A program made the position numbers and the translations under genes. Under the pieces are notes generated by a model, which saw nothing but the letters and a program-made list of their open reading frames with translations, was not told the origin of the DNA and did no database searches. From an uncultured Coprococcus sp. (lineage in GTDB: Bacteria > Bacillota > Clostridia > Lachnospirales > Lachnospiraceae), in the NCBI GenBank assembly GCA_902461735.1, contig CABPYV010000007.1, positions 96,471-160,470 of the forward strand: a DNA stretch of 64,000 nucleotides. The letters run 5' to 3'. Positions 6,631 to 55,029 of the stretch are shown here, in pieces; the first letter of the stretch is position 1; every line of letters starts with the position of its first letter.

Positions 6631-6683
6631 CATCAGCAATTTGCTGATGTACTTGTTATAACATAATATATATTTGACGTCAA
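6631..6683 (-). promoter_or_regulatory. Candidate sigma-A promoter on the minus strand (-35 TTGACG, 17-bp spacer, -10 TATAAC) with a perfect 19-bp palindrome CATCAGCAATTTGCTGATG (6631-6649) at the predicted transcription start. It would drive a ~300-nt leader and the small ORF 5945..6319.
   Basis: Reverse complement of 6655-6683 reads TTGACGtcaaatatatattatgtTATAAC. The palindrome was read directly. Confidence 0.45.
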
Positions 6684-6753
6684 CACATTTTCGAAATATT
6701 TGGCGTCAACACATTTTCGAAATATTTGGCGTCAACACATTTTCGAAATATTT
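6675..6753. repeat. Three tandem 26-bp direct repeats (g[a/g]cgtcaacacattttcgaaatattt). The first copy contains the CRE-like palindrome TTGACGTCAA.
   Basis: Direct reading of 6671-6755. Confidence 0.85.
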
Positions 6754-6872
6754 GTAGCAGTATTTTTTATACCAGATAATACTATGCTTATAAAACACAA
6801 GAGAGCCAGATTTCTCCGACTCTCTTAAATATGCATCCACAAATGCATACCCCAATTAGTATTTCTAATTTC

Positions 6873-21000: not shown

Positions 21001-21353
21001 CTTATAATCTCCTTATATCTGCTTTATTTTAATTTATGATAGTGATTATATATTTGGTCTTTTACATTTTCAACTGACCTCACAAATTTCATAGTATGCG
21101 CCTTCGTTGACTTTGCGGTCTCTTAATGATATATATTAATCAAATGTACAGTATCACAATCAATGAAAATGCATTTTCTGCAGCACAAACAATTTCTATG
21201 ACATAGTTTTTTATTGAACATAGAATATGCATAGAGCAAGCATAGAGTAATCATAGAACAAACATAACTCAAATTTAGAAGTGCAAATATAGAATATACA
21301 AATATAAAATATACTCAAATCAAATATAAATTAATAGTAGAATGGAGATTATC

Positions 21354-22199
21354 ATGTCAGAGAATTGTACACATAATTGCAGCACCTGTGGACAGAGCTG
21401 TTCTAACAGAACAGAGCCACAGAGTCTTATCATAAACGCACATCCAGGATCACATATAAAGCACATAATTGCTGTTGTGAGTGGTAAGGGTGGTGTCGGC
21501 AAATCATCAGTAACATGTCAGCTGGCCGTACTTATGCAGCGCATGGGATTTAAAACAGCGATACTTGACGCTGATATAACCGGTCCTTCCATACCTAAAG
21601 CATTTGGAGTACATAAAATGCCTGAGGGAGAAGGTGACTTTCTCTACCCTGATGAGACAAAAACAGGAATAAAGATCATGTCAGTCAACCTTCTTTTGGA
21701 CGACGAAACCACCCCTGTTCTCTGGAGAGGTCCTATCATAGCCGGCACAGTGAAGCAATTTTATTCAGATATTATATGGGGAGATATCGACTATATGTTT
21801 ATAGACTGTCCTCCCGGAACTGGCGATGTACCTCTTACCATATTCCAGTCCATTCCAATAGATGGAGTTGTTGTTGTGACAACCCCACAGGACCTTGTAT
21901 CAGTCATTGTTGGCAAAGCAGTCCATATGGCGGACAGTATGAATATACCCGTCATAGGAATGATTGAAAATATGTCCTACTTCGAATGCCCGGACTGTGG
22001 CAACAAACACTATATATTTGGAAAGAGCCGACTTGAGGAAGTCATGAAAGAATTGTATATCGGAAATGCCATAAGACTTCCAATAAACCCACAGCTTGCC
22101 GAACTTATGGATCACGGACACATTGAAGATATGCAGGGAAATGCTGATCTTCAGGAGATGGCCGAACTCATAAGCACATACAATCCGGATAACCTGTAA
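21354..22199 (+). CDS. apbC: Mrp/NBP35-family Fe-S cluster carrier ATPase (ApbC). Start at MSENC, which has the better RBS.
   Basis: N-terminal CxxC cluster, P-loop GKGGVGKSS, and a CPDCGN Cys pair. Confidence 0.85.
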   Translation: MSENCTHNCSTCGQSCSNRTEPQSLIINAHPGSHIKHIIAVVSGKGGVGKSSVTCQLAVLMQRMGFKTAILDADITGPSIPKAFGVHKMPEGEGDFLYPDETKTGIKIMSVNLLLDDETTPVLWRGPIIAGTVKQFYSDIIWGDIDYMFIDCPPGTGDVPLTIFQSIPIDGVVVVTTPQDLVSVIVGKAVHMADSMNIPVIGMIENMSYFECPDCGNKHYIFGKSRLEEVMKELYIGNAIRLPINPQLAELMDHGHIEDMQGNADLQEMAELISTYNPDNL

Positions 22200-22253
22200 A
22201 TCAATTTATATGTATGATCATACATTTGAACTTATAACTGTTATGGAGAATAT

Positions 22254-23168
22254 ATGAATCTAGAAAATTTGCTTGAGAAATGCATATTATGTCCAAGAAA
22301 ATGTGGAGTCAACAGACTAAAAGGCATCACAGGAGCATGTCATACTTCTGATAAAGTAAAAGTATCTCGTGCTGCACTTCATATGTGGGAGGAACCATGT
22401 ATATCAGGAGAAAATGGTTCTGGTGCCATATTCTTCTCTGGCTGTGCACTAGGATGCTGTTTCTGCCAGAACAAAGACATATCACGTGGAAAAGCAGGAA
22501 AAGAGATATCTATAGAAAGACTGTGCAACATTTTTTTTGAACTTATGGACAAGGGTGCCAACAATATCAATCTTGTGACTCCCGATCATTACATTCCTCA
22601 GATAATAGCTGCTATAGACATGGCTCACTCCCGCAACTTTCCTCTTCCATTTGTATATAACTGCAGTGGATATGAAACAACCGAGATGATAAAGATGCTG
22701 GATGGCTACATAGATGTATACCTGCCGGATTTTAAGTTCATGTCAGCTGATGTCGCATCGAGATATTGTAAAACCCCTGATTATTCATCATACGCAAAGC
22801 AGGCCATCGCTGAGATGGTCAGACAATGCGGAGGCATAAAGACCAGATTTAATCAGGATGGAATTATGCAGAAAGGTGTAATTGTCAGGCATCTACAGCT
22901 TCCAGATCATATAGACGATTCCAAATCTATAATAACATACCTATATAACACTTACGGCGACGATATCTATATAAGTATAATGAATCAATATACTCCTATG
23001 AAGGGTATAGAGAATAAATATCCGGAGCTTGGACGCAAGCTCACCCCCAGAGAATATGATGAGCTGGTCGACTATGCGATCGACATAGGTGTTGAAAATG
23101 GATTCATACAAGAGGGTGATACGGCAAGCGAAAGCTTTATTCCAGCTTTCGACAATGAAGGTGTATAA
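22254..23168 (+). CDS. Radical SAM protein, PflX-like (COG1313 type).
   Basis: CALGCCFCQN fits CX3CX2C. The N-terminal CxxC motif and the rest of the sequence resemble the pyruvate formate-lyase activase-related family. Confidence 0.65.
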   Translation: MNLENLLEKCILCPRKCGVNRLKGITGACHTSDKVKVSRAALHMWEEPCISGENGSGAIFFSGCALGCCFCQNKDISRGKAGKEISIERLCNIFFELMDKGANNINLVTPDHYIPQIIAAIDMAHSRNFPLPFVYNCSGYETTEMIKMLDGYIDVYLPDFKFMSADVASRYCKTPDYSSYAKQAIAEMVRQCGGIKTRFNQDGIMQKGVIVRHLQLPDHIDDSKSIITYLYNTYGDDIYISIMNQYTPMKGIENKYPELGRKLTPREYDELVDYAIDIGVENGFIQEGDTASESFIPAFDNEGV

Positions 23169-23406
23169 TATCTAAATGCTGTATAACATCTAAAAACTGT
23201 ATGGTATCCAAAAGCTGTATAATATCTAAAGTATATTATATTAGTCAAATCACCACTAAATAAATCAAAACGAGATATCAGATTGAACAACTTATAATCC
23301 GGTATCTCGTTTTTTAATGTATATTTATCGTTTTTAAATGCATATTTAAATCTATTACGCAAAAAATGGATCAGCCACAACTTATTGTAGTCAATCCATC
23401 TTGAAG

Positions 23407-23479
23407 TGGGCCGCCGGGGGCTCGAACCCCGCACACCCTGATTAAGAGTCAGGTGCTCTACCAAATGAGCTAGCGGCCC
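23407..23479 (-). tRNA. tRNA-Lys (anticodon CTT).
   Basis: Manual cloverleaf: acceptor GGGCCGC/GCGGCCC, anticodon loop CT-CTT-AA, T-loop GGTTCGAGCCC. No encoded CCA. Confidence 0.85.
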
Positions 23480-23657
23480 GTATTTATTATATTGTGTCCG
23501 TCACAACAAAATATAATATACTATATTCTTATAAATAATGCAAGCATTTTTTTAACAAAATGCATTCAAATTTATAACCCTCCGATTTATAACAAAACGC
23601 ATTCAAATCAGAAAAAATGGACCAGCCGCAATTTATTGCAGTCAATCCATCTTGAAG

Positions 23658-23730
23658 TGGGCCGCCGGGGGCTCGAACCCCGCACACCCTGATTAAGAGT
23701 CAGGTGCTCTACCAAATGAGCTAGCGGCCC
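23658..23730 (-). tRNA. tRNA-Lys (anticodon CTT), identical second copy.
   Basis: Identical 73-nt sequence; part of a ~250-bp tandemly duplicated unit. Confidence 0.85.
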
Positions 23731-23986
23731 GTGTTATTATGTTGTGTTCGCCACAACAGGTTAGAGTATACATTAGTTTATATGATATTGCAAGCACTTT
23801 TTAAAAATTTTTTTATTTTTGATTGTAGGCTTTTTGATTTTTAATTTTTTTGATTTTTGATTTTATACTATCACCCGAATATAATTTGAATATCAATTTT
23901 CCATATGTTATTATTATAAGGTATGACTTTTTCAACAATAACAGGATTTTACCGATTTAAAATTGATATAAATATGGAGAAACACT

Positions 23987-24631
23987 ATGAGACTCAGGAA
24001 TGTAAAAGGATCAAGAGAAACTATAGCTGCAAATGATTATGTAATACATGATGAAACTGCCATGAAGGGACACTGGCATGAATTATTTAACAACAATAAC
24101 CCTATTCACATTGAAATAGGTATGGGCAAAGGTCAGTTTATCATGGAACTTGCCAGACGTAACCCAGATATAAATTATATAGGTATAGAAAAATACTCAA
24201 GTGTCCTTGTACGCGCTCTCGAAAAAAGACAGCAGGAGCCTGAAATGACGAATCTCTTCTTTATTAGAATGGATGCAGAATATATAACAGATGTATTTGA
24301 CAAAGATGAGGTTGATCGAATATATCTGAATTTCTCTGATCCATGGCCAAAGGACAGACACGCCAAAAGGAGACTTACCTCTACTCATTTTCTCGGGCTA
24401 TACGACCAGCTTCTGACACCTGAGGGAAGAATCATTTTTAAAACCGACAACAGAGCTCTTTTCGACTTCTCCCTTGAACAGGTACCAGAAGCCGGCTGGA
24501 CTCTCGAGAATTTCACCTACGATCTCCATAATTCTGAATACAACGAAGGTAATATCATGACAGAATATGAAACCAAATTTTCAGCCATGGGAACCCCTAT
24601 AAACAGACTCGTTGCGTACAGAAACAAATAA
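23987..24631 (+). CDS. trmB: tRNA (guanine46-N7)-methyltransferase.
   Basis: 214-aa ORF. HIEIGMGKGQF, YIGIE and FSDPWPK(D)RHAKRRL motifs. Confidence 0.9.
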   Translation: MRLRNVKGSRETIAANDYVIHDETAMKGHWHELFNNNNPIHIEIGMGKGQFIMELARRNPDINYIGIEKYSSVLVRALEKRQQEPEMTNLFFIRMDAEYITDVFDKDEVDRIYLNFSDPWPKDRHAKRRLTSTHFLGLYDQLLTPEGRIIFKTDNRALFDFSLEQVPEAGWTLENFTYDLHNSEYNEGNIMTEYETKFSAMGTPINRLVAYRNK

Positions 24632-24714
24632 CCACTTGTTGACACACTGATTTTGGTATACTAGAATAAAAAATTATACATATATAGAAAGTAATACTAA
24701 GAAAGGAGTATATC

Positions 24715-25857
24715 ATGGACAACACATCTATTGAAAGTCTGAAAACCGTTCGCAACAACAATCAGGATTTACTTAACTTTTTTAATAATTCATATATAAG
24801 TAAACTAGAACAGGTTCAGTCTCTGAAATCTGAAGAGTTTGAGTTAAAAGCCAAAATTGATCAATTGGTAAAGACTTTGGATGTATACTCCTTTAAGACC
24901 AGTGCAGGACATAACGTTTTTTCACCGTTTTCTGTAAGTGCAACTTCCCAGCAGGAAAAAGCAACTCAGATTGAACTCCAGCTTAAGAAGTTAAAGAAAA
25001 TCCAGTCTGAATTGAAAGCTCAGATAAAGGAAGAGGAAGAAGAAACTGATCTCCTCAAGAAGAGAATAGCCAATCTGTCAACATCAAATAAGCATCTTGA
25101 TGAGTTACTATCTGAGATTACTGAGGAAGTGTCAACTATCAGTAAAGATAGTGATAATACAGAAAATCAGACGGTTATGGATGATGATAGGGCTTATCAC
25201 GGAATCAACATTCTGAAACTTCATCAGTACGAAAAACAGCAGCTAGCTGAAAAGATTCAGACTGACATAACCGAAGTTCTAGATTCCAATTCGCATAAAT
25301 TGGAAGTTCTTTCATGGCTTATCAGGTCTGACATAAACAGGGCAAAGGTTACTCTTGAAGAATTGACAGACTCCACATCCAAACTTGCAGACCAGGTTGA
25401 CGAACTTGCAAATTCACTTGTCAACGAACCAAAGACAGACGAGCCTGTATGGAATACACTGGAACACATTTTTCAAAAATATAAAGATTCACACCCTGAA
25501 TGTGGAGTTTCGTACGATATAAACTGTACTGATTATGCCATGAACATTCCGGACATAGTATCAACACATCTTATACTTATTATAGAAGAGTTAATGAAAA
25601 ATATATTTACACATTCAAGTGCCAATAAAGTGGCTGTCAAAATATATTTGAGTAGTAAGCTTATCGATGTATATATAAATGATAACGGTGTTGGAATTGA
25701 CAGTAATTATTCAGAAACCAGTCCTTGGTACAGTGGTCTTCATAAAATTAGAGAAATCGTCTATCTGCTCGGAGGCACTTTTAAGATCACTAACAACTCT
25801 TCAGACGATTCCGAAGAACCAAATGGAACAAATGTCAGACTGACTATTCCACTGTAA
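24715..25857 (+). CDS. Cytoplasmic coiled-coil protein with a C-terminal GHKL (HATPase_c) domain. It is DegS-like, but the phospho-acceptor His appears to be replaced.
   Basis: C-terminal N-box EELMKNIFTHS, G1 DNGVGID and G2 GLHKIREIVYLLGG. No TM segment. The HisKA_3-like region reads EKQQLAEKIQTDITEVL where DegS has E..R.....IHD. Confidence 0.55.
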   Translation: MDNTSIESLKTVRNNNQDLLNFFNNSYISKLEQVQSLKSEEFELKAKIDQLVKTLDVYSFKTSAGHNVFSPFSVSATSQQEKATQIELQLKKLKKIQSELKAQIKEEEEETDLLKKRIANLSTSNKHLDELLSEITEEVSTISKDSDNTENQTVMDDDRAYHGINILKLHQYEKQQLAEKIQTDITEVLDSNSHKLEVLSWLIRSDINRAKVTLEELTDSTSKLADQVDELANSLVNEPKTDEPVWNTLEHIFQKYKDSHPECGVSYDINCTDYAMNIPDIVSTHLILIIEELMKNIFTHSSANKVAVKIYLSSKLIDVYINDNGVGIDSNYSETSPWYSGLHKIREIVYLLGGTFKITNNSSDDSEEPNGTNVRLTIPL

Positions 25858-25932
25858 AGTTGGATATGTTTACTTTCTCCGATTTAATACATATATACTT
25901 CGTAATCAACAAATAACACATTACAGTGAGCA

Positions 25933-26031
25933 ATGCATTACGATAAACATTGTATTAAGCAAACCATGCATTACGATAAACATTGTATTGAGCAAACCAT
26001 GCATTACAATAAACAATACAGTACAGCAAAT
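25933..26031. repeat. Tandem 33-bp direct repeats (atgcattacgataaacattgtatt[a/g]agcaaacc): 2 near-perfect copies plus a degenerate third, about 200 bp upstream of argS.
   Basis: Direct reading. Confidence 0.8.
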
Positions 26032-26223
26032 AATGTATTACTGCAAACAATACAGTATAATAAACAAAATATTACACCGTGTTATATTTATAAATAATAC
26101 GCTACCTTAAGGTTGCCAATACTAACAACCCATATATGATTTTTATCAGCATGTATATAGATATCTCGAGTAGAAATTTTATATAAAATATTTAACATAA
26201 CAAATTATAAAGGAAAAATTATC

Positions 26224-27915
26224 ATGAAAGAAAAAATCGCAGAACTTATTTCAAACAAAGTAGAGGGCGTTGACGTCTCTGATATAATTGCTTCAATAGA
26301 GATTCCTCCACGTCCGGACATGGGTGATTATGCATTTCCATGTTTTAGACTCGCAAAAGTCATGAGAAAAGCTCCAAATATGATTGCTGCAGATATCAAA
26401 GAACAAATTGGTGACGTTGATTTCATTGAAAAAATAGACGTTGCAGGCGCATATCTTAACTTTTATATAAAGAAGGATATTTTCGTAAAATCAATGATAG
26501 AGAAAGCCAACTCAACTGACTTTGGCAGCTCCGACATGGGCAATGGACAGACTATATGCATAGACTATTCATCTCCTAATGTTGCAAAGAATTTCCATGT
26601 AGGCCATCTTAGAACAACTATCATTGGAAATTCCCTATACAAGATATATTCTAAGCTCGGATACAAAGTTGTCAGAATCAACCATCTCGGTGATTGGGGT
26701 ACACAGTTTGGAAAACTCATTGTTGCTTACAAGGCATGGGGATCAAAAGAGGCTGTCGAAAAAGACGGAATTGCAGAACTCATGAAGCTTTATGTCAAAT
26801 TCCACGAGGAGGCAGATAAAAATCCAGAGCTGGTAGACGAAGCAAGAGCTTGGTTTAACAAGATGGAAAACGGAGATGAAGAAGCTCTCAGCATCTGGCA
26901 GTGGTTCAAGGACATAAGCCTTGTTGAATACAAGAGAACTTATAATCTTCTCGGAATGGACTTTGACTATTACCTTGGAGAGAGTTTCTACAGAGATAAA
27001 TGTCAGGCAGTCGTGGACAAGGTAAAGGCTGCTGGTCTTCTCAAAGAAAGCGAAGGTGCAATGATTGTTGATCTTTCTGATTATGATATGGCACCATGTA
27101 TTATTACCAAGAAAGATGGAAGTTCAATATATGCAACTCGTGATCTGGCAGCAATATTCTACAGAAAAGAAACTTATAACTTTTCTAAATGTCTGTATGT
27201 AACCGGTCAGGAACAAAAACTCCACTTTGCACAGGTATTCAAGGTTGTTGAATTACTTGGAAACGACTGGGCTAAGGATCAGCTTGTACACATACCGTAT
27301 GGACTTGTAAGTCTTGAAGGTGCAAAATTATCAACCAGAAGCGGAAATATCATATATGCAGAGGATATTCTCAAAGATGCCATTGCAAAGAGCCTTGAAA
27401 TAATAACAGAAAAGAGTCCAAATCTTCCTAATAAGGATGATGTTGCAAAGAAAGTTGGTGTAGGTGCTGTTCTGTTTAATGATCTATACAACCAGAGAAT
27501 AAAGGATGTATCATTTAGCTGGAATAAGGTTCTCAACTTTGATGGAGAGACCGGACCATATGTTCAGTATACACATGCGAGATGCTGCAGCGTAGTTCGT
27601 ATGGATGAGAATTTCGATCCATCAAAGCCAGTTGACTACAGTCTTATCACAGAGCAGGATGCAATAGAACTCCTCAAGGAGATCAACAGATTCCCAGCCA
27701 TAATAAAGGATGCTGCAGAAAAGTACGAGCCTTCTGTTGTCGCTCGATTCGCTGTAGATGTTGCTCAGGCATTTAATAAATTCTATAATTCAACAAGAAT
27801 AAATGTTGATGATAAGGATCTCAAGAATGCACGTGTAATGCTCACTTATCTTACAAAAAATACTATCTCCAGTGCTCTTGAACTTCTTGGAATCGAAGCA
27901 CCGGAAGCTATGTAA
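26224..27915 (+). CDS. argS: Arginine--tRNA ligase.
   Basis: 563-aa ORF. HIGH-type motif NVAKNFHVGHLRTTIIGNSL and the typical class I ArgS architecture. Confidence 0.93.
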   Translation: MKEKIAELISNKVEGVDVSDIIASIEIPPRPDMGDYAFPCFRLAKVMRKAPNMIAADIKEQIGDVDFIEKIDVAGAYLNFYIKKDIFVKSMIEKANSTDFGSSDMGNGQTICIDYSSPNVAKNFHVGHLRTTIIGNSLYKIYSKLGYKVVRINHLGDWGTQFGKLIVAYKAWGSKEAVEKDGIAELMKLYVKFHEEADKNPELVDEARAWFNKMENGDEEALSIWQWFKDISLVEYKRTYNLLGMDFDYYLGESFYRDKCQAVVDKVKAAGLLKESEGAMIVDLSDYDMAPCIITKKDGSSIYATRDLAAIFYRKETYNFSKCLYVTGQEQKLHFAQVFKVVELLGNDWAKDQLVHIPYGLVSLEGAKLSTRSGNIIYAEDILKDAIAKSLEIITEKSPNLPNKDDVAKKVGVGAVLFNDLYNQRIKDVSFSWNKVLNFDGETGPYVQYTHARCCSVVRMDENFDPSKPVDYSLITEQDAIELLKEINRFPAIIKDAAEKYEPSVVARFAVDVAQAFNKFYNSTRINVDDKDLKNARVMLTYLTKNTISSALELLGIEAPEAM

Positions 27916-27940
27916 TATATAATTATATATTCTATTATAA

Positions 27941-27990
27941 AACAGGAAACAATAGTTATTTAGAGTTACCACTATTGTTTCCTGTTTTTA
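27941..27990 (+). terminator. Rho-independent terminator after argS.
   Basis: AAACAGGAAACAATAG...CTATTGTTTCCTGTTTTT hairpin plus T-run. Confidence 0.8.
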
Positions 27991-28029
27991 GTTTGCAACC
28001 ACAACTCCTGCAAAGCAATATTTCTCGAA

Positions 28030-28200
28030 TCTTCTTTTCTTATTTATTTTCATATTTTTTTTCTTTCTTTTCTTATTTATTTTTCTTGTTTTTTTCTTGA
28101 TTCTTATTTTCTTGGTTTTATTTTTCTCGCTTCTTTTTCTTACCTCTTTTTTCTTGGTGCTTTTTTCTTAGTTTTCATTTTTTGCTTTTTTTTTCTGTTT
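28030..28200. repeat. Phased oligo-T / TTTTTCTTG tracts with ~11-13 bp periodicity (polypyrimidine on the + strand); likely intrinsically curved DNA.
   Basis: Direct reading: at least 7 TTTTTCTT(G/A) motifs at ~13-bp spacing. Confidence 0.6.
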
Positions 28201-28361
28201 GCTCTTTTATATATTTTTGAAATATTTCATCAGTAATATTACCAATTATCTCTCTTAAATCAGCTCTAGTTCTGCCATACAATACTTTGTTCTATATTTT
28301 TGGGTATATTTTTGGATATTTTGGAATAAAAATTATCCGGTATTGTTATTTTTATTTAAAA

Positions 28362-28377
28362 TGTTTCACGTGAAACA
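28362..28377. promoter_or_regulatory. parS centromere site TGTTTCACGTGAAACA (perfect consensus 16-mer).
   Basis: Exact match to the Spo0J/ParB parS consensus. Confidence 0.9.
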
Positions 28378-28379
28378 TT

Positions 28380-29160
28380 CTATTGATATATTAATATTAT
28401 ACTCAAGCTTACCTCCACGTGTCTGTCTTAGACGTATTATCCTTTCTTCAGCGTATCAGTCTTTTTTGGCGTGTTTTTTTTCAGCGTGTATTCTTTCAGC
28501 GTATCTTCATTCAGCGTGTATTTTTCCTTAATGTGTAATTTCTTTCTCAACGTATCTTTTCCGCTTCGATGTGTTATTTTTTCGAACATGTCATTATTTC
28601 TCTGGCATATCAGCCTTTCTTTGGCGTGTTTTTCTTTCTACAATGCGTAATTTTTCCCTCGGAGCGTCTTTTTCCCTTAGATGTGTATTTTTTCTCAAAC
28701 GTGTCATCCTTTCTCTGGTGTATTATTCTTTCTTCAACATATCTTATCAGCACATAATTCTTTTTTCTCCGTGTTTCTCATTCTCCGACGTGTCTTTCTT
28801 TCTCCACCGTGTCATTCTTTCTCTAGAATATCATTCTTTCTTTGACATGTTATTCTTTCTCAATCGTATCATTTGTTCTCCGGTGTATTATTCTTTCTTC
28901 AACATATTTTTTTCAGCATATAATTCTTTTTTCTGCGTGTTTCTCATTCTCCAGCGTGTCTTTCTTTCTCCACCGTGTCATTCTTTCTCTAGAATATCAT
29001 TCTTTCTTTGACATGTTATTCTTTCTCAATCGTATCATCCGTTCTTCGACGTGTTTTTCTTTCTTCGTTTTGTCATATTTTCTTTGGTTTGTCATATTTT
29101 CCTCAACGTGTAATTTTTCTCCGGCATATCATTCTTCTTATGTATGCTGTTTCTTCTATT
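28380..29160. repeat. Array of ~40 contiguous degenerate ~19-bp direct repeats (approximate consensus nCGTGTnaTTCTTTCTCn). Pyrimidine-rich on the + strand. It includes a ~130-bp higher-order duplication (28741-28870 vs 28901-29030, about 95% identical). Non-coding.
   Basis: Direct reading. The units are contiguous with no unique spacers. ORFs in the region are low-complexity and occur in all three frames. Confidence 0.8.
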
Positions 29161-29566
29161 ATACTAGTATTATACTCAGTTCATCCCATACGACTTTATA
29201 CGTTATCAGCAGCCTCTCAAATAAAATACAAAAGAATAACTTATGTATAAATTATCAACAAACTTACTGTCATATTATTTCTAGTCATTTTTTTATTTTA
29301 ATACAATACCAAATATTATTTTTTTATTCATGTAGAATTAACCAATCATAAGTGCTATAATAGACAAGCATTATTTAATGATATGATTTTATAGTTGTTA
29401 TTCATTGTAAATGATCATTGGTTATCAATCATAAAAGATAAATGTGAATGATTTTCAGTTTTTATAATGTGTATTTGTAATAAATTTATGCAAATGAAAT
29501 TTGCGATGAAATATACAAAGAATAAGAGCTATTCAATAGAACTTGCATTTTTTTCAATGAATATGA

Positions 29567-29582
29567 TGTTTCACGTGAAACA
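29567..29582. promoter_or_regulatory. parS site TGTTTCACGTGAAACA, 52 bp upstream of parA.
   Basis: Exact consensus match. Confidence 0.9.
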
Positions 29583-29633
29583 TTTCCTAAATCGCGCGGA
29601 AAACATCTTTTTTTCACTAAAAAAGGAGTAAAA

Positions 29634-30404
29634 ATGGGCAGAATAATAGCAATCGCAAATCAGAAAGGCGGTGTGGGCAAAACCACAACTGCTATTAACC
29701 TGGCAGCATGCCTTGCAGCAAAAGGGAAAAAAGTTCTGGCCGTTGATATGGATCCACAGGGAAATATGACTAGTGGTCTTGGCATAGATAGAGACTCTCT
29801 TGAATACACAGTATATGATATGTTGCGAAATGAATGCAACATAGGTGAGTGTATGCTTATAAATGTATATCCAGGTTTAAATCTTTTACCTGCTAACAGA
29901 GAACTGGCAGGTGCAGAGGTAGAATTTGTTGGCATGTCAGATATGCAGCATATTTTGAAAACCCATATCAGAAAGGTCAAAAATAAATTTGATTACATTA
30001 TTATAGATTGTCCTCCGGCACTTGGAATGCTTACTGTAAATGCTTTGACTGCAGCCAATACGGTGCTAGTTCCAATTCAATGTGAATTTTTCGCATTGGA
30101 TGGATTATCACAGCTTGTATACACAATAGAACTTATAAGAAAAAATCTGAACAAATTGCTTACAATTGAAGGCGTTGTATTTACGATGTTTGATTCAAGA
30201 ACAAATTTATCAGTTCAAGTAGTTGAAAATGTTCGTGAAAACCTTAACCAGCACATATATAATACAGTTATTCCAAGAAATGTACGTTTAGCAGAGGCCC
30301 CAAGTTATGGAATGCCAATTATCGAATATGATCCTAAATCCGCTGGAGCTGAACACTATATGATGTTGGCTGATGAAGTTATAGAAAACGACTATTATAG
30401 ATAA
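29634..30404 (+). CDS. parA: Chromosome partitioning ATPase ParA/Soj.
   Basis: Deviant Walker A KGGVGKTTTAINLAA. 256 aa. AAGGAG RBS. Confidence 0.93.
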   Translation: MGRIIAIANQKGGVGKTTTAINLAACLAAKGKKVLAVDMDPQGNMTSGLGIDRDSLEYTVYDMLRNECNIGECMLINVYPGLNLLPANRELAGAEVEFVGMSDMQHILKTHIRKVKNKFDYIIIDCPPALGMLTVNALTAANTVLVPIQCEFFALDGLSQLVYTIELIRKNLNKLLTIEGVVFTMFDSRTNLSVQVVENVRENLNQHIYNTVIPRNVRLAEAPSYGMPIIEYDPKSAGAEHYMMLADEVIENDYYR

Positions 30405-30419
30405 AAGAATTATTCTAAA

Positions 30420-30435
30420 TGTTTCACGTGAAACA
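30420..30435. promoter_or_regulatory. parS site TGTTTCACGTGAAACA in the parA-parB junction.
   Basis: Exact consensus match. It overlaps the ORF-track start of parB, so the parB start was moved downstream. Confidence 0.9.
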
Positions 30436-30457
30436 TTTTAGAAAAATGGAGGAGAAA

Positions 30458-31429
30458 ATGGCACAAAAAAAAGGTTTAGGAAGAGGTTTGAATGACCTTT
30501 TAGGAACATCTGATGCTTCAAGATCCCCAAGATCTAAAAAATCAGATGAAACTTCATCAAAATCTGCAGAAAATGAAGTAAAAACCGTTACAAAAGAAGT
30601 TATTAAAGAAGTTGTCAAAGAAGTTGAACAGAAAATCAATATAAATCTGATAGAACCAAACAAATCTCAGCCAAGAAAGCAATTTGATGAGGAGGCATTA
30701 CAAGAATTAGCAGATTCCATAAAGAAATACGGTGTTTTAGAGCCTCTGATTGTGACAAAAAAAGACAATTATTATGAAATAATTGCTGGAGAACGGCGCT
30801 GGCGTGCAGCTAGAATTGCTGGGATAAAGGAAATACCTGTTGTTATACGTGAATATACAGATAAAGAAATTATGGAGATTTCTCTTATTGAAAATATTCA
30901 AAGAGAAGACCTCAATCCTATTGAAGAAGCTCAGGCATATGAAGCTTTGATATCACAGTATAATCTTAAACAGGAGGAAGTAGCTGAAAGAGTATCAAAA
31001 AGCAGATCAACCATCACCAATTCCCTTAGATTGCTCAAACTCTGTGAGGATGTAAGGCAAATGGTTATGTATAATATGATTTCAACAGGTCATGCGAGGG
31101 CTCTTATACCTATAGAAGATCCTAAGCTACAGTATGAAACAGCAGCAATAGTATATGACCAGAAACTGAGTGTGCGAGAAACTGAGGCCTATGTAAAATC
31201 AATATTAGAGGCTAAGCCTAAAGAAGAAAAAGAACCTAAAGAAGAAAAGAAAGATCTCTCAGTGTTCTATTCTGATATAGAAAACAAATTAAAATCTATT
31301 CTTGGAGCAAAAATAGCGATCAAGGCTTCCAATAACAACAAGGGAAAAATTGAAATAAACTATTATTCTCAAGATGAGCTTGATAGGATAACAGAAATGT
31401 TATACTCAATCAATAAAGAAATGATGTAA
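30458..31429 (+). CDS. parB: Chromosome partitioning protein ParB/Spo0J. Start at MAQKKGLGRGL; the ORF track gives 30419.
   Basis: KGLGRGL N-terminus, GERRWRAA (ParB box II), an HTH and an acidic/Lys linker. GGAGGAG RBS before the ATG at 30458. Confidence 0.9.
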   Translation: MAQKKGLGRGLNDLLGTSDASRSPRSKKSDETSSKSAENEVKTVTKEVIKEVVKEVEQKININLIEPNKSQPRKQFDEEALQELADSIKKYGVLEPLIVTKKDNYYEIIAGERRWRAARIAGIKEIPVVIREYTDKEIMEISLIENIQREDLNPIEEAQAYEALISQYNLKQEEVAERVSKSRSTITNSLRLLKLCEDVRQMVMYNMISTGHARALIPIEDPKLQYETAAIVYDQKLSVRETEAYVKSILEAKPKEEKEPKEEKKDLSVFYSDIENKLKSILGAKIAIKASNNNKGKIEINYYSQDELDRITEMLYSINKEMM

Positions 31430-31461
31430 TTTACACACATTCAAGGAAGGACAATATATCA

Positions 31462-31989
31462 ATGGATAGTTCCATATTACAAAAAATTGGCATTGATCCT
31501 GCATACATACTTATAGGTATGTTAGTTCTCATTATTGTCTTGTTTGTACTATTATTCATAATGATTGGAAATATTAAAAATAGAAACAAACAAATTAAGC
31601 GGCTATTAAGTGGAACACAGGCAGGGGATTTGGAAGATATAATAATGAAACGTTTTGCAGAGATGGATGCTGTGAAAAATAATTCCAAAAGGCTTACGAA
31701 GGAACATAAGGAAATTCAAAGCCACCTCTCATCATGTGTTAGTAAAATTGGGCTTATTAAATATAATGCATTTGAAGATATGGGTGGAAATCTAAGCTTT
31801 GCCCTTGCTATAATGGACAGTGATAACAATGGTGTCGTACTAAACAGTATGCATACAAGAGAAGGCTGTTTTAACTACGCGAAAGAAATTATTGGTGGTG
31901 AATCCTATGTTGTTCTATCCGAAGAGGAAAAAGAAGCCATCGAAAAAGCTAAAACTCTGGAAGACGAAATTGCAGAGAATAAATTATAA
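31462..31989 (+). CDS. Small membrane-anchored protein, DUF4446-like (commonly found downstream of parB in Clostridia).
   Basis: N-terminal TM helix and length ~175 aa. The family assignment is from memory of synteny and overall pattern, not from a specific motif. Confidence 0.45.
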   Translation: MDSSILQKIGIDPAYILIGMLVLIIVLFVLLFIMIGNIKNRNKQIKRLLSGTQAGDLEDIIMKRFAEMDAVKNNSKRLTKEHKEIQSHLSSCVSKIGLIKYNAFEDMGGNLSFALAIMDSDNNGVVLNSMHTREGCFNYAKEIIGGESYVVLSEEEKEAIEKAKTLEDEIAENKL

Positions 31990-32113
31990 TAAAAATTGTT
32001 ATAAATTATTGTAATAAGAGCTATAATAAACAATTATGTAGTAAATAGCATATTATGTAGCTACATTATATAGTATGTTTCAAAAAAATATATATTAATA
32101 ATAGGAGGATATC

Positions 32114-33403
32114 ATGATTGATATTAAATTCTTAAGAGAAAATCCAGACATAGTAAAGCAGAATATAAAAAACAAGTTTCAGGATGACAAGCTTCCACTT
32201 GTAGATGAAGTAATAGAACTGGACAAACAGGCTCGTGCAGCTCAGCAGGAAGCTGATACACTCAGAGCAAGCAAGAATTCAATTGCAAAACAGATTGGTG
32301 CACTTATGGCTCAGGGAAAGAAAGATGAAGCTGAAGAAATAAAGAAGCAGGTTGCTGAGACTTCTGCAAGGCTTAAAGAACTCGAAACATTAGAGCCAGA
32401 GTTAAAAGAAAAAGTCAAAAAAATAATGATGATAATACCAAACATTATTGATCCATCTGTTCCTATTGGTAAGGACGATTCAGAAAATGTAGAAGTTCAG
32501 AAATACGGTGACCCTGTAGTCCCAGACTTTGAAATTCCATATCATACAGAAATAATGGAGTCATTAGGAGGAATAGATCTTGATTCAGCAAGAAAGGTAG
32601 CAGGAAATGGTTTCTACTATCTCATGGGAGACATAGCAAGACTTCATTCTGCTATCATATCTTATGCGAGAGATTTCATGATTGACAGAGGATTTACATA
32701 TTGTATTCCTCCTTTCATGATCAGAAGCAATGTCGTTACCGGTGTTATGAGCTTTGCCGAAATGGATGCAATGATGTACAAAATTGAAGGAGAAGACCTC
32801 TATCTCATCGGAACATCAGAGCATTCTATGATTGGTAAATTTATTGATACAATAATTCCAGAGGAGGAGCTTCCAAAGACTCTCACAAGCTACTCTCCTT
32901 GCTTCAGAAAAGAAAAGGGTGCTCATGGAATCGAAGAGCGTGGCGTATACAGAATTCACCAGTTTGAGAAGCAGGAAATGATAGTTGTATGTAAGCCTGA
33001 AGATAGCAAAATGTGGTTTGATAAACTGTGGCAGAATACTGTAGATCTCTTCAGATCAATGGATATTCCTGTAAGGACGCTCGAGTGTTGTTCTGGTGAC
33101 CTGGCAGATCTCAAGGTAAAATCAGTCGATGTTGAGGCATGGTCTCCTCGTCAGAAGAAGTACTTTGAGGTAGGAAGCTGTTCTAATCTCGGAGATGCAC
33201 AGGCAAGACGTCTTCAGATCAGAGTAAAGGGAGAAGACGGAAATAAGTATCTTGCTCACACCCTCAACAATACAGTTGTAGCACCGCCAAGAATGCTTAT
33301 TGCTTTCCTTGAGAACAATCTTCAGGCAGATGGCAGAGTTAGAATACCTGAGAAACTCCGTCCATACATGGGTGGCAAGGAATACCTCGAGAAAACAAAA
33401 TAA
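32114..33403 (+). CDS. serS: Serine--tRNA ligase.
   Basis: 429-aa ORF with an N-terminal coiled-coil arm. Class II motifs (FRKEKGAHG, GSCSNLGDAQARRL). Confidence 0.93.
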   Translation: MIDIKFLRENPDIVKQNIKNKFQDDKLPLVDEVIELDKQARAAQQEADTLRASKNSIAKQIGALMAQGKKDEAEEIKKQVAETSARLKELETLEPELKEKVKKIMMIIPNIIDPSVPIGKDDSENVEVQKYGDPVVPDFEIPYHTEIMESLGGIDLDSARKVAGNGFYYLMGDIARLHSAIISYARDFMIDRGFTYCIPPFMIRSNVVTGVMSFAEMDAMMYKIEGEDLYLIGTSEHSMIGKFIDTIIPEEELPKTLTSYSPCFRKEKGAHGIEERGVYRIHQFEKQEMIVVCKPEDSKMWFDKLWQNTVDLFRSMDIPVRTLECCSGDLADLKVKSVDVEAWSPRQKKYFEVGSCSNLGDAQARRLQIRVKGEDGNKYLAHTLNNTVVAPPRMLIAFLENNLQADGRVRIPEKLRPYMGGKEYLEKTK

Positions 33404-33497
33404 TTGACTATTTTATAAATTGCTCTAATGATTTGGCATGATGGATACACTTTTCATGCATATAAAACTATATTCATAAAACAAGGGAGGTGTCGGA

Positions 33498-34370
33498 ATG
33501 CATAGTTTTTTACCGGCTATAGGGTTTTCAAATATAAATAACAGACAGCAGTTGGAACCAATTTACAGACAAATTCTTGAATCACCAACAAAAAAAATAA
33601 TCACAACTATAAGTTCTGACACTAACCTTGTACAGATAAGCAAAGATTTTGGAAACGGATTTGGTATATCTTTGATTGGCGAAATGTCATTTAGTGGACA
33701 ACTATCCATAGAGTACTATTTTCCTTATGTCAGTTCCAGTTTATTGACTAGTCATCTAAATATCTATGCTGAAAAATACACGGATAAAAATGCCTATGCA
33801 GGGGTAAACAATAATTACAATCTTGGAATGACTCTTATATTTTTTATTTCTAATGTGGCTGATTATGAAAAATCCAGATGGATGAATAAATCAAATAAAA
33901 ATATTACAAAGGCTTTTTTTTCAGGTATGTCCAACAACGGTACAGTAATTCTTAATATCAATGGAGAAAATAAGTCAAACAACTCAAAATTAAGTAATCG
34001 CAAAAGAAATAAACTTATAGAAGCTGCTAAAAAAGGTGATCCTGCTGCTATCGAAAGTCTAACACTTGAGGATATGGATACCTATAATCTTATAGGTAAA
34101 AGAACCCACTCAGAAGATATTCTATCTATTGTAAAATCAAGTTTTATGCCTGTTGGAATAGAAACTGATCACTATGCCATAATTGGAAATATACTTGCTT
34201 GTAAAGAAGTTTTAAATGAAATTACAAAAGAAACTGTATATCTTATGGATATAGAATGTAACGATTTGACATTTACCATAGCAATAAATAAAAATAACCT
34301 TCTAGGAGAACCAGCTCCCGGAAGAAGATTTAAAGGCGACATATGGCTTCAGGGTCACATTATTATGTGA
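33498..34370 (+). CDS. Hypothetical protein (290 aa), no recognisable family.
   Basis: ORF with a GGGAGGTG RBS. Asn/Lys-rich. Confidence 0.5.
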   Translation: MHSFLPAIGFSNINNRQQLEPIYRQILESPTKKIITTISSDTNLVQISKDFGNGFGISLIGEMSFSGQLSIEYYFPYVSSSLLTSHLNIYAEKYTDKNAYAGVNNNYNLGMTLIFFISNVADYEKSRWMNKSNKNITKAFFSGMSNNGTVILNINGENKSNNSKLSNRKRNKLIEAAKKGDPAAIESLTLEDMDTYNLIGKRTHSEDILSIVKSSFMPVGIETDHYAIIGNILACKEVLNEITKETVYLMDIECNDLTFTIAINKNNLLGEPAPGRRFKGDIWLQGHIIM

Positions 34371-34463
34371 TCAAGTTCTTACATTATTGCATGATTAAAT
34401 TATATGTTTAAGTTCAGAAATATTGACTATCACTTGTTTAAGTGATAGAATATTATTTAGTGT

Positions 34464-34537
34464 GCATCTGTAGCTCAGCAGGATAGAGCGTCCGCCTCCT
34501 AAGCGGAAGGCCGTGGGTTCGAATCCCGCCAGGTGCA
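34464..34537 (+). tRNA. tRNA-Arg (anticodon CCT).
   Basis: Manual cloverleaf: acceptor GCATCTG/CAGGTGC, anticodon loop CT-CCT-AA, T-arm GTGGGTTCGAATCCCGC. Confidence 0.8.
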
Positions 34538-34601
34538 CTATTTTTCATAAGGAGGGACCCACGCAAGTGGGAAGTTTCCTATAAAATTTTCTAAAAGGGA
34601 C

Positions 34602-35582
34602 ATGACTATGAATTATATTGTTATGGATCTTGAATGGAATCAAAGCTACAACGGGCATTTGGGCGAACACCCTCGCATGCCATTTGAAATTATAGAGATT
34701 GGTGCTGTAAAAGTAGATAAGAATCTTAACATCATTGATGAATATTCGAGTCTTATCAAGCCAAGAATTTATAAAAAGCTTCATTCAAAGATCAGAACAA
34801 TTCTGAACTATGATGAGAATGACCTAAATAAAGGAAGAGGATTCAAAGAAGTATGTTCAGAATTTTTTGAATGGTGTGGAGATAATTACATATTCTGCAC
34901 TTGGGGACCAATGGATCTTACAGAACTACAAACCAATATGGATTTCTACTATATGGACAAGCTCCCAAGACCATTGAAGTTTTTGAATCTCCAAAGTATA
35001 TATGCGAATGTTACTAACCATTCAGGTTCGTCACAAACCATGAGCAAACTTGAAAAAGCAGTAAGTGAAATGCATATTCCTGAAAATGAGCCATTCCACA
35101 CAGCTCTCAATGACGCAAGATATACTGCACTTGTCATGAAAGAAATGAGGGCAAAAAATATAAATCAATTATATAGTTTTGATTTATATATAACTCCAAA
35201 AGATAAATCTGAGGAAATTGAGGAATCTCATAATAATCAATATGAATATATTTCAAGAACTTTTAATAATAAACATGTTGCTCTTGATGATAAAAAAGTA
35301 ACTGAGATCAGATGTTACAAATGCAACAGTAAAAAAGTAAAAACCTGTATTGACTGGTTTGCCAATAGCCCTTCATCGTATATGTGTGTTGGAAAATGTT
35401 GGATACATGGATATTTCTGTGGAAAGATAAAATTCAAACCGTTATCCAATAAATACTACGTTCAAAAAACTATTAAACCAATCGACAAAGCGGGAATAGA
35501 AGCAATTAAACAGAAACAGGAAGATATCCGGGAAAAAAGAAAAGAGAAGAGGCATATGAAATCCTCAAGTTCTTCTATATAA
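34602..35582 (+). CDS. DEDDh 3'-5' exonuclease, KapD/RNase T-like, with a Cys/His-rich C-terminal extension.
   Basis: Exo motifs DLEWN (I), WGPMD (II) and HTALNDARYTA (III). C-terminal CYKCNSKK...CVGKCWIHGYFCG. Confidence 0.65.
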   Translation: MTMNYIVMDLEWNQSYNGHLGEHPRMPFEIIEIGAVKVDKNLNIIDEYSSLIKPRIYKKLHSKIRTILNYDENDLNKGRGFKEVCSEFFEWCGDNYIFCTWGPMDLTELQTNMDFYYMDKLPRPLKFLNLQSIYANVTNHSGSSQTMSKLEKAVSEMHIPENEPFHTALNDARYTALVMKEMRAKNINQLYSFDLYITPKDKSEEIEESHNNQYEYISRTFNNKHVALDDKKVTEIRCYKCNSKKVKTCIDWFANSPSSYMCVGKCWIHGYFCGKIKFKPLSNKYYVQKTIKPIDKAGIEAIKQKQEDIREKRKEKRHMKSSSSSI

Positions 35583-35612
35583 AAAAACAGCCTTTTGTAG
35601 GCTGTTTTTTTA
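35583..35612. terminator. Bidirectional rho-independent terminator AAAAAACAGCCTACAAAAGGCTGTTTTTTT between the convergent exonuclease gene and rsmG.
   Basis: Perfect hairpin flanked by A-run and T-run. Confidence 0.85.
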
Positions 35613-43648: not shown

Positions 43649-45013
43649 ATGAAAGACGCAATTTTAGCCAAGTGGAATAATATATTAGATATTCTTGAGA
43701 ATGAGCATGGCATTTCTCATATTATGATTCACACATGGATAAAGCCTCTAAAAGTTTACTCTGTTGAAGATAACAAGGTATATTTCACTTTGGATGAAAA
43801 ATATGGTCAAAGGGGCATTGAATTTCTCAAAAAAAAGTTATTCGATATTTATCTTGAAACCGTTCTCAGAGAACTTTTTCAGGACGATTCTATTCAGGTC
43901 ATATTTACCCTTGAAAGCATTATGAAAGAAGAGGAAAAGATGCCTACTTACACAGAAGATTACAATGAGTTGATCAGTAAGAGCAATCTTCGTCCAGACT
44001 ATACATTTGAAAATTTTATTGTAGGAGAAAGTAATAAGCATGCACATGCAACATGTCTTGCAGTTGCTGATTCACCTGGACAGGACAAGTTTAACCCTCT
44101 TTTTCTGTATGGAGGTTCAGGTCTTGGAAAGACTCACCTTATGCAGTCTATCGCGCATTACATACTTCAGCACAATAATAATATGAAGGTTCTCTATGTA
44201 CCTTCTAACAAATTTACAAACGAAATAATTGAAGCCATTGCAAAGAATAAAACCGAAGAATTTCGTAATAAATATAGAACTGTTGATGTTCTGCTTATAG
44301 ACGATATACAGTATTTAATAGGAAAGGAAAGTACACAGCAGGAGTTTTTCGATACTTTTAATGCTCTCCATGACAAAGGAAAACAGATAATTCTTTCATC
44401 CGATAAACCTCCAAAAGAGATTAAATCATTAGATGAGAGATTTCGTTCAAGATTTGAATGGGGTGTTCCTATTGATATACATGCCCCTGATTACGAAACC
44501 CGTATGGCTATCCTTAAAAACAAAGCTGAGATGAAGGGACTTAAGAATATCAGCGAATCTATATTTGAATATATTGCCAATAATATAACTTACAATGTAA
44601 GGGAACTGGAGGGAGCACTCAACAAGCTCAGTATTTACTCTGAACTTGGAGATATAAAACTTACAGATGAACTGGCAAAAAATGTTCTTAAAGATTTTAT
44701 ATCAAAGGATGAGAAGATAACCATCACCCCTGATCTTATAATCAATACAGTGTCCGAGCACCTTAACATATCAGTAAATGATATCAAATCAACAAAAAGA
44801 AGTCAGGACATTGCCAATGCACGTCAGATATCTATGTATCTATGTAGAAAATTTACTGACAAAGGATTGAAGAGTATAGGAGATGCGTTTGGAGGTAAAG
44901 ATCACTCAACCGTTCACAGTAATATTCAAAAGGTTGAAGATAAGATCGATAAGGACCCTGAATTTGCAGAGATGGTTGATGTTATCATAAAAAAACTCAA
45001 TCCTCAAAAATAA
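43649..45013 (+). CDS. dnaA: Chromosomal replication initiator protein DnaA.
   Basis: 454 aa. Walker A GGSGLGKTHL. C-terminal DNA-binding motif. Confidence 0.95.
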   Translation: MKDAILAKWNNILDILENEHGISHIMIHTWIKPLKVYSVEDNKVYFTLDEKYGQRGIEFLKKKLFDIYLETVLRELFQDDSIQVIFTLESIMKEEEKMPTYTEDYNELISKSNLRPDYTFENFIVGESNKHAHATCLAVADSPGQDKFNPLFLYGGSGLGKTHLMQSIAHYILQHNNNMKVLYVPSNKFTNEIIEAIAKNKTEEFRNKYRTVDVLLIDDIQYLIGKESTQQEFFDTFNALHDKGKQIILSSDKPPKEIKSLDERFRSRFEWGVPIDIHAPDYETRMAILKNKAEMKGLKNISESIFEYIANNITYNVRELEGALNKLSIYSELGDIKLTDELAKNVLKDFISKDEKITITPDLIINTVSEHLNISVNDIKSTKRSQDIANARQISMYLCRKFTDKGLKSIGDAFGGKDHSTVHSNIQKVEDKIDKDPEFAEMVDVIIKKLNPQK

Positions 45014-54704: not shown

Positions 54705-54919
54705 TAACATGGATAGATTAGAAATCTATTAAAAATATACTATTTGTTAATTTATATATTTATGAATGAAAAATATAGTAAATATTAACAAAATAATTGG
54801 TTAAAATGACAGATGTTATGTGATTGACGAAAATACATAAAAATAATAAACTAAAATACGAGGGAAGATTTAGAAAAAAATCAGTTTTTGATTTGGATTC
54901 AGATTAGTATTTGAATTAT

Positions 54920-54979
54920 GATTCAGATGATCTTGATTCAGATGATCTTGATTCAGATGGTCTTGATTCAAATAATGAA
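54920..54979. repeat. Tandem 15-bp repeats (gattcagatgatctt, ~4 copies) upstream of the FN3-protein gene.
   Basis: Direct reading. Confidence 0.8.
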
Positions 54980-55029
54980 GATTCTGAAAAAACATGGAGT
55001 ATTAAAGGATTTAGGAAAAGGAGAGATTT

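Follow-up and report, generated by a model that had tools for sequence, protein, structure and literature searches.

The long non-coding spacer upstream of the chromosome partition operon parAB in an uncultured Coprococcus sp. (Lachnospiraceae) harbors 39 degenerate head-to-tail units of 19 bp, bracketed by perfect copies of parS, the site at which the partition protein ParB is loaded. We have analyzed this array within a window of 64 kb, by which we mean the whole stretch of contig CABPYV010000007.1 under study, and the comparison with conspecific strains and related species leads us to regard it as probably an unconstrained, species-specific minisatellite, or variable-number tandem repeat (VNTR), that resides in the spacer of a centromere. 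The array (28415–29140, ~726 bp) combines the traits by which VNTRs are defined, namely contiguous units within the range of 10–100 bp, copy-number polymorphism by whole units and the lack of constraint at the coding or sequence level. An earlier note on this DNA, based on the sequence alone, had proposed an extended centromere or an iteron-type binding array and had mentioned a hypervariable slippage satellite among the alternatives. It is the satellite that is best supported by the indels of units and 166-bp blocks and by the absence of constraint; the first proposal is not supported, in view of an unconstrained core, of variation faster than at synonymous sites and of the absence of the array in sister species.

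Segmentation guided by a position weight matrix (PWM) yields the unit consensus CRRCGTGTCATTCTTTCTY, with either purine at positions 2 and 3 and either pyrimidine at position 19; units follow each other at exactly 19 bp in 27 of the 38 intervals, and purines are essentially restricted to unit positions 2, 3, 5, 7, and 10. The self-match at lag 19 amounts to 0.55, whereas the background is 0.33 (z = 5.9); more peaks appear at 38, 57, and 166, and Tandem Repeats Finder (TRF) returns periods of 19 (19.1 copies, 28781–29136), 38, and 166, so that the estimate of ~40 units and the periodicity anticipated by the earlier note are both borne out. The longest period reflects a higher-order repeat made of eight 19-bp units and one 14-bp unit (28681–29066, 2.3 copies, 90% match according to TRF); a duplication of ~130 bp had been suggested and has to be corrected to 166 bp. 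With 71.6% pyrimidine on its + strand, the array is the most extreme 740-bp segment of the window, which confirms the strand asymmetry reported previously, although this excess corresponds to only ~2.7 standard deviations because coding strands here reach 0.68. On both sides stands the 11-bp direct repeat TATTATACTCA: the left box (28395–28405) is invariant in all conspecific assemblies examined, and the right box (29168–29178) is preceded by a partial extra copy, TATTATACT. The starts of the two boxes are 773 bp apart, and the extent of ~780 bp first given for the block has to be corrected to this distance or, for the array itself, to ~726 bp.

The variability of the array was assessed on a set of 12 assemblies, that is, the window and eleven other conspecific ones, ten of which are contigs from independent metagenome assemblies retrieved with the exact ParA protein and the eleventh by a pattern scan. 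In all eleven, the array is found at the same place, enclosed by the TATTATACTCA boxes and parS sites seen in the window, and L086 matches the window without a difference throughout the spacer. The flanking genes of these strains share 97.6–99.1% identity with the window at 4-fold sites, but between lineages identity is only ~91–95% for the spacer and falls as low as 74–86% in some parts of the array. Across the 12 assemblies the array measures 619–787 bp including both boxes, and the two outer sites of the spacer, parS-1 and parS-2, are separated by 1040–1207 bp. Direct alignment of nine arrays indicates that the ends are well conserved and positionally homologous, as is a block at ~28512–28715, and that length changes by discrete steps: a 15-bp unit near 28470 occurs in ~2–6 copies, a 19-bp unit near 29066 in 1–4 copies, and the 166-bp block is single in L091 and present in 2.3 copies in the window lineage. 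The central third consists of other, non-orthologous units in other lineages. Whether the array is conserved or variable in copy number among related genomes, a point raised at the outset, can therefore be answered: it is kept in 12 of 12 conspecific assemblies, its copy number varies, and it is missing from sister species.

At the nucleotide level, 12.3% of the columns in orthologous array blocks are polymorphic among eight strains, versus 3.8% of the 4-fold sites and 5.7–10.4% of the columns in the non-repeat spacer; aligned array columns thus vary ~3 times as often as 4-fold synonymous sites. Within the unit, the CRTRT core (positions 4–8) does not differ significantly from the other positions (10% versus 13% polymorphic, Fisher p = 0.57). 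From unit to unit, the runner-up base is T at every consensus C and A at every consensus G, the best-kept positions are those occupied by T, and the core G positions vary most, G to A. Such a drift from GC to AT looks like the mutational decay of a duplicating satellite, not like a maintained binding site.

The motif is confined to this species. The 17-mer consensus, searched with up to 3 mismatches, gives 9 matches in the window, all within the array, and the 19-mer PWM gives 37 matches in the array and a scattered background without any cluster elsewhere in the window and in 10 sister loci. No match to the array was found by blastn in plasmid and phage collections, and a two-unit pattern run against the JGI metagenomes retrieved a single conspecific contig. 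The relatives are close by their partition proteins: ParA of the sister Coprococcus loci is 94–98% identical (4-fold identity ~0.49, that is, saturated), and ParB of the window shares 95%, 89%, and 87% identity with metagenome-assembled genomes (MAGs) labelled Coprococcus sp. and 87% with Coprococcus aceti. Nevertheless, the only parts of the spacer that can be aligned with these sister loci are the parS sites, a block at 29311–29435 and the ribosome-binding site (RBS). A 26-mer of the sister locus L002 ('CAATGGCGTAATTTT') resembles one unit of the window; we take this likeness as chance because L002 contains no PWM match.

There is likewise no sign that the block encodes a protein, in line with what the earlier note had asserted. 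Neither the two long + strand open reading frames (ORFs) of the array nor the two on the − strand belong to a Pfam family; the + strand frames are long because the purine-poor strand lacks stop codons. The small ORFs proposed by gene callers, on either strand, change from strain to strain and lack any Pfam match, and the strain indels of 15, 19, and 166 bp, not being multiples of three throughout, would break any reading frame.

Taken as a VNTR, the array would have arisen, and would still be remodelled, through slipped-strand mispairing and unequal exchange, events by which single 15- or 19-bp units and 166-bp blocks may be gained or lost and between which the units would decay by GC-to-AT transitions. 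The flanking direct repeat TATTATACTCA fits an origin by microhomology-mediated duplication, a mechanism that a recent preprint puts forward as a widely applicable source of tandem repeats (bioRxiv 10.64898/2026.02.28.708716). Sequence specificity at the locus would then reside in the three parS sites, where ParB clamps bound to cytidine triphosphate (CTP) are loaded, and in the conserved promoter block that follows the array at a distance of ~200 bp. The 19-bp units, which we infer not to be transcribed, would have no sequence-specific job, and whatever they contribute would be bulk: ~0.6–0.8 kb of DNA without genes that separates sites of ParB loading and along which clamps could slide.

The 16-bp parS palindrome TGTTTCACGTGAAACA occurs exactly three times without mismatch in the 64 kb, at 28362, 29567, and 30420, the three places described in the earlier note; 0.02 occurrences are expected by chance. 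parS-1 (28362–28377) is found in all conspecific contigs, parS-2 (29567–29582) lies in the parAB leader, 52 bp 5' of the parA start codon, and parS-3 (30420–30435) sits at the parA–parB junction, 16 nt past the parA stop codon. On the + strand follow parA/soj (29634–30404, 256 aa; Pfam ParA, CbiA, and AAA_31), with the deviant Walker A motif KGGVGKTT, and parB/spo0J (30419–31429; Pfam ParB_N, HTH_ParB, and ParB_C), with the CTP-binding motif GERRWRA; the presence of both motifs identifies a canonical chromosomal ParABS system, whose operon comprises parA, a helix-turn-helix (HTH) parB and a DUF4446 gene. All three flanking sites have the attributes of canonical chromosomal parS, that is, the palindrome TGTTNCACGTGAAACA, proximity to the origin and an HTH/CTPase ParB nearby, and the array stands outside this class. 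As a cluster of ParB loading sites, the region qualifies as a chromosomal centromere. The first in-frame ATG of parB overlaps parS-3 (30419–30457; N-terminus MFHVKHF), and 6 of the 10 conspecific gene calls skip it and start parB 13 codons later; the true start is probably 30458, which gives a protein of 323 aa. The peptide MFHVKH also appears in spurious ORFs at the remaining parS sites, and parS is therefore a recurrent source of false start calls.

As revealed by blastn against the sister loci, the + strand block at 29311–29435 is the sole part of the spacer between these elements that is conserved across Coprococcus species. It contains TGCTATAAT, an extended −10 element at 29353–29361 (putative −10 hexamer at 29356–29361) that, judged from its sequence, is probably the parAB promoter; the leader transcribed from it would measure ~270 nt and include parS-2. 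The inverted-repeat search also detected an imperfect palindrome at 29395–29434, which could be a candidate operator. Within the species, the segment 29301–29440 shows 2.1% polymorphic columns, the minimum of the spacer. The array is contiguous and stops ~215 bp upstream of the putative −10, with no overlap.

To place this organization in its family context, we surveyed 36 Lachnospiraceae loci. The spacer upstream of parA has a median length of 822 bp and usually contains 2–7 parS sites, although several spacers are only ~200–500 bp long; the more distant Clostridia recovered by the same search mostly have no parS upstream of parA. For this clade, the view that nothing comparable is to be expected between argS and soj is therefore wrong, since Lachnospiraceae as a rule have a long spacer with multiple parS sites upstream of parA, and several of these spacers contain unrelated tandem arrays: units of 13/25 bp in L001, 26 bp in L002, 79 bp in L003, ~15 bp in L005 (C. 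aceti), and 18 bp (18.7 copies) in L013, with none in L004. The GC-rich 79-bp array of L003 (4.2 copies, L003 8552–8927) lies between parS sites; its composition is completely unlike that of the window array, and it has no Rfam match. In five Lachnospira loci (L025, L027, L030, L032, and L034), tandem units of 57–114 bp that each carry a parS are found 200–1100 bp upstream of parA, with up to 7 parS within 800 bp in L027, an arrangement equivalent to a chromosomal, sopC-like amplification of the centromere.

Several observations weigh against a purely neutral satellite and deserve to be gathered here. The polymorphism test is low-powered, with 40 variable columns in 8 strains. None of the 12 assemblies lacks the array, and its presence could therefore be selected. 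Adjacent units have lost about two-thirds of their excess identity (0.55 over 0.33), so the array must be partly old, and its old parts have escaped the deletion bias of bacteria. Despite complete turnover of the sequence in between, the outermost parS sites are 1021–1301 bp apart in five of the six Coprococcus species. Finally, the density of tandem arrays of at least 100 bp in the 36 loci is 0.32 per kb for the spacers upstream of parA, as compared with 0.084 per kb for the remaining non-coding DNA and 0.008 per kb for coding DNA. The spacers thus exceed the remaining non-coding DNA ~4-fold (binomial p = 0.011), and four of the six arrays counted as other non-coding lie directly downstream of parB. 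Compared with all DNA, the excess is ~8-fold (p = 1.5e-5). This enrichment is suggestive, not definitive, because the gene mask is crude; together with the kept parS spacing, it hints at something beyond pure neutrality.

The foremost rival explanation is that ~1 kb of gene-free, poorly transcribed DNA is selected as a bulk spacer between the outer parS sites, for example as a reservoir for sliding ParB-CTP clamps or for the loading of SMC. Tandem duplication would then be the quickest way to regenerate length, and the array would be functional as bulk and not as sequence. The outer spacing shared by most Coprococcus species over unalignable DNA, the median spacer of the family and the parS-1 to parS-2 distance kept by all conspecific assemblies speak in its favor, and neutrality at the nucleotide level is compatible with it. 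Against it stand L006, whose outer parS sites are only 462 bp apart, and the short spacers of several Lachnospiraceae. It is well established that HTH-ParB loads at parS, then slides in a CTP-dependent manner and spreads over kilobases (PMC8299390, PMC7725951, PMC9242446, PMC9499535); ParB should therefore cover the array whatever its sequence. This spreading extends over ordinary coding DNA as well, so that a dedicated platform is not obviously needed (PMC9242446, PMC9499535). We consider selection for bulk to be rather unlikely, all in all.

Another possibility, which we also hold to be doubtful and put forward as a tentative one, is that the parS-cluster spacers of Lachnospiraceae are a preferred habitat or even a generator of fast-turnover satellites, higher-order repeats included, of which the window array would be one instance. 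Two causes can be envisaged: the ParB–parS complex might stall replication forks and thereby provoke slippage and tandem duplication, or arrays might be selected for the assembly of the partition complex, as a clamp reservoir, as a condensate scaffold or as the site of a lineage-specific accessory factor. It is tempting to see here a prokaryotic counterpart of the association between conserved segregation proteins and the fast-evolving satellites of eukaryotic centromeres. The resemblance to alpha-satellite is one of analogy only: species-specific higher-order arrays, fast turnover and conserved segregation proteins are common to both, whereas the window array measures 0.7 kb against megabases and it is the parS sites that recruit and position the segregation machinery.

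It seems improbable to us that the units form an iteron-type array for a sequence-specific DNA-binding protein, be it as an accessory centromere, a tether of the origin or a regulator of parAB. The regular 19-bp register with its 27 exact spacings, the purines at fixed positions of the unit and the location between parS sites ~200 bp upstream of the putative parAB promoter are what such an array would show, and plasmid parS regions often consist of tandem repeats of the ParB-binding consensus (PMC9499535). On the other side, the core is unconstrained and polymorphism exceeds that of synonymous sites, no further copy of the motif exists in the 64 kb, and sister species with near-identical ParA and ParB do without it, L004 having no array at all. 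Nor is there a gene for a ribbon-helix-helix (RHH) or other small DNA-binding protein in or beside the spacer, where the small gene calls are inconsistent and devoid of Pfam matches.

The plasmid systems that inspire this comparison help to delimit it. RHH-type centromeres such as the parC iterons of pSK41 and R1 are iterated, with repeats of ~20 bp in pSK41, and the units of the F-plasmid centromere sopC are 43 bp long. The centromere of pSM19035, also an RHH-type partition system, is built of 7-bp heptads, and sopC comprises 12 tandem units with one ParB-binding site each (PMC9499535). Like the RHH centromeres of Firmicutes, the window array is composed of contiguous short direct repeats in the neighborhood of the putative promoter of a par operon, which they do not reach, with a period near that of pSK41; unlike them, it has no gene for an RHH centromere-binding protein in the operon, it counts 39 units versus 4–12, its units are degenerate and unconstrained, and the locus has its own centromere protein, an HTH-ParB with separate parS sites. 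With sopC it shares the tandem arrangement at a ParABS centromere, a design that the Lachnospira loci do reproduce; its unit, however, contains neither parS nor an inverted repeat, and the ParB sites lie outside the array, which is thus not of the sopC type. Centromeres made of contiguous repeats on plasmids (PMC9499535) are still the nearest functional analogy, but the membership of the array among the iteron centromeres of type Ib/II partition systems is not supported.

Among chromosomal systems, clusters of several parS next to parAB have been reported in Caulobacter, Myxococcus, Corynebacterium, and Streptomyces. The window shares with them several canonical 16-bp sites within 1–2 kb of parAB near oriC and an HTH/CTPase ParB with GERRxRA, and differs by the parS-less satellite interleaved with the sites; in our full-text literature search, we did not come across any report of satellite arrays situated inside a parS cluster of a chromosome. 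As for intergenic VNTRs of bacteria, such as the loci used in multilocus VNTR analysis (MLVA), the likeness extends to short head-to-tail units, strain differences by whole units, nested duplication, neutral or faster substitution and restriction to a single species. What sets the window array apart from them is its unusual length and degeneracy (31–41 units of 19 bp) and its location, flanked by sites where ParB loads, in a spacer where unrelated arrays recur among related species.

That the array is transcribed, either into a purine-rich − strand sponge RNA or as the pyrimidine-rich distal part of a parAB leader started from a promoter overlapping parS-1, appears quite improbable. On the − strand, a box containing TATAAT is found on each side of the array. 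The promoter scan gives a sigma-70 match of 10/12 (CAGACA-18-TATAAT, − strand, 28425–28396) and a + strand match overlapping parS-1, and the + strand folds somewhat better than shuffled sequence (z = −2.6). Against this, the right-boundary box has no acceptable −35, and the number of promoter-like matches does not stand out from that of shuffled sequence (13 versus 10.2 ± 2.9). The purine-rich − strand has a fold score of z = −0.2, no structure is conserved on either strand, and nothing of the array is conserved beyond the species. Rfam searches of the whole window, of 27800–29700 with permissive settings and of six sister loci returned tRNAs and chance-level matches only; inside the array, nothing passed the gathering threshold, and at E ≤ 10 only U6 and DnaX appeared at chance level. 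Unit indels and fast substitution also speak against a structured RNA, and the non-coding RNA locus contemplated in the earlier note is accordingly improbable.

The same holds for its suggestion that the CGTG core represents half of the parS center, from which a low-affinity nucleation zone could be imagined where weak half-sites assist ParB loading or bridging. What the two have in common is the tetranucleotide CGTG and the location between true parS sites, and nothing more. No 9-mer half-site TGTTTCACG with up to one mismatch exists between 28405 and 29160, CACGTG is present in 1 of the 39 units, the unit consensus is without dyad symmetry, and the inverted-repeat search found none within units. 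Moreover, the G positions of the core are those that vary most, and the array is restricted to one species while parS does not change throughout the family, which makes a role as weak ParB sites very improbable. Last, although repeats can break or mis-join short-read assemblies, as illustrated by the L002 contig that ends inside its own repeat tract, a collapsed or chimeric assembly is hardly conceivable, since 11 further assemblies, produced by different projects and with different assemblers, show the same units in the same order, each of them recognizable individually.

Some structural properties were considered apart from these scenarios and set aside. Curvature or helical phasing of the DNA produces no autocorrelation peak at 10–11 bp in the array, and the periods found in sister species (13, 15, 18, 26, and 79) have no common helical register. 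The longest pure pyrimidine run inside the array, only 13 nt, led us to discard H-DNA. Likenesses to Spo0A, LexA, and DnaA boxes, noticed by eye, concern a few units and are not in the consensus; one DnaA-like 9-mer exists in the spacer, outside the array.

The spacer between argS and parA totals 1718 bp. It begins after argS, the arginyl-tRNA synthetase gene (26224–27915, + strand, a 563-aa ORF; Pfam Arg_tRNA_synt_N, tRNA-synt_1d, and DALR_1 on the identical conspecific gene), with a long terminator-like hairpin at ~27940–27990 that, as read from the sequence, is probably a bidirectional terminator; a simple terminator scan made no call on it, and its Rfam matches are all sub-threshold and of hairpin type. 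Then come in order a T-rich tract, parS-1, TATTATACTCA, the 19-bp array, TATTATACTCA, ~130 bp of unique AT-rich DNA, the TGCTATAAT block, parS-2 and the RBS of parA. The T-rich tract corresponds to array A (28031–28200), a second and more decayed tandem tract with a period of ~14/28 according to TRF and 85% pyrimidine on the + strand, which lies beyond parS-1 and is length-variable among strains (14–23% gap columns, 10% polymorphic columns). A likeness between certain units of array A ('TTCTTGGTGCTTTTTTCTTAG') and units of the 19-mer ('TTCTTTGGCGTGTTTTTCTTTCT') raises the possibility that array A is related to the main array and older than it. On the − strand, at 28178–28297, one frame reads ...YGRTRADLREIIGNITDEIFQKYIKEQTEKKSKK* right after a stop codon and without an obvious RBS; it may be what is left of a gene formerly located between parS-1 and array A.

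Clusters of DnaA boxes at 43.03–43.42 and 45.07–45.39 kb flank a 454-aa ORF (43649–45013) that we assign to dnaA by its position, and the cumulative GC skew has its minimum at ~43 kb; both place oriC at ~14 kb from the array, as had been noted. To the left of oriC, a block of + strand genes that includes argS, parAB, and serS (21300–35600) has a positive GC skew, and the genes that flank it are on the − strand with negative skew; the block looks like an inverted, head-on segment that holds the centromere. The first part of the window (1–21000) is compositionally distinct, with a GC content of 0.41–0.49 versus 0.30–0.40 in the remainder. Other small intergenic tandem repeats occur in the window, namely 33 bp in 4.5 copies upstream of argS (25907–26075), 26 bp in 3.3 copies with 98% identity (6670–6754), 18 bp in 4 copies (23158–23230), and 15/30 bp (54919–54984), and this genome seems generally prone to such repeats. 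In a Lachnospiraceae MAG of our survey (L007), a cluster of DnaA boxes resembling TTATCCACA (478–540) adjoins four parS sites upstream of parA, so that an oriC-like element may be a direct neighbor of the centromere in that genome. The contig of the sister species L002 ends 771 bp upstream of parA, just past its own 26-bp repeat tract, and spacers upstream of parA may commonly break MAG assemblies.

As a plain VNTR, the array is of limited importance: it would offer a good strain-typing marker for this gut Coprococcus, and it is at the same time a trap for gene callers and a likely breaker of MAG contigs. Beyond that, it is of value mainly because tandem arrays appear to be enriched around parAB in Lachnospiraceae. 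If the co-location of arrays and parS clusters turns out to be general, bacteria would provide a tractable system for asking why segregation loci gather fast-evolving satellites, and it would become possible to test whether ParB complexes perturb replication enough to create repeats.

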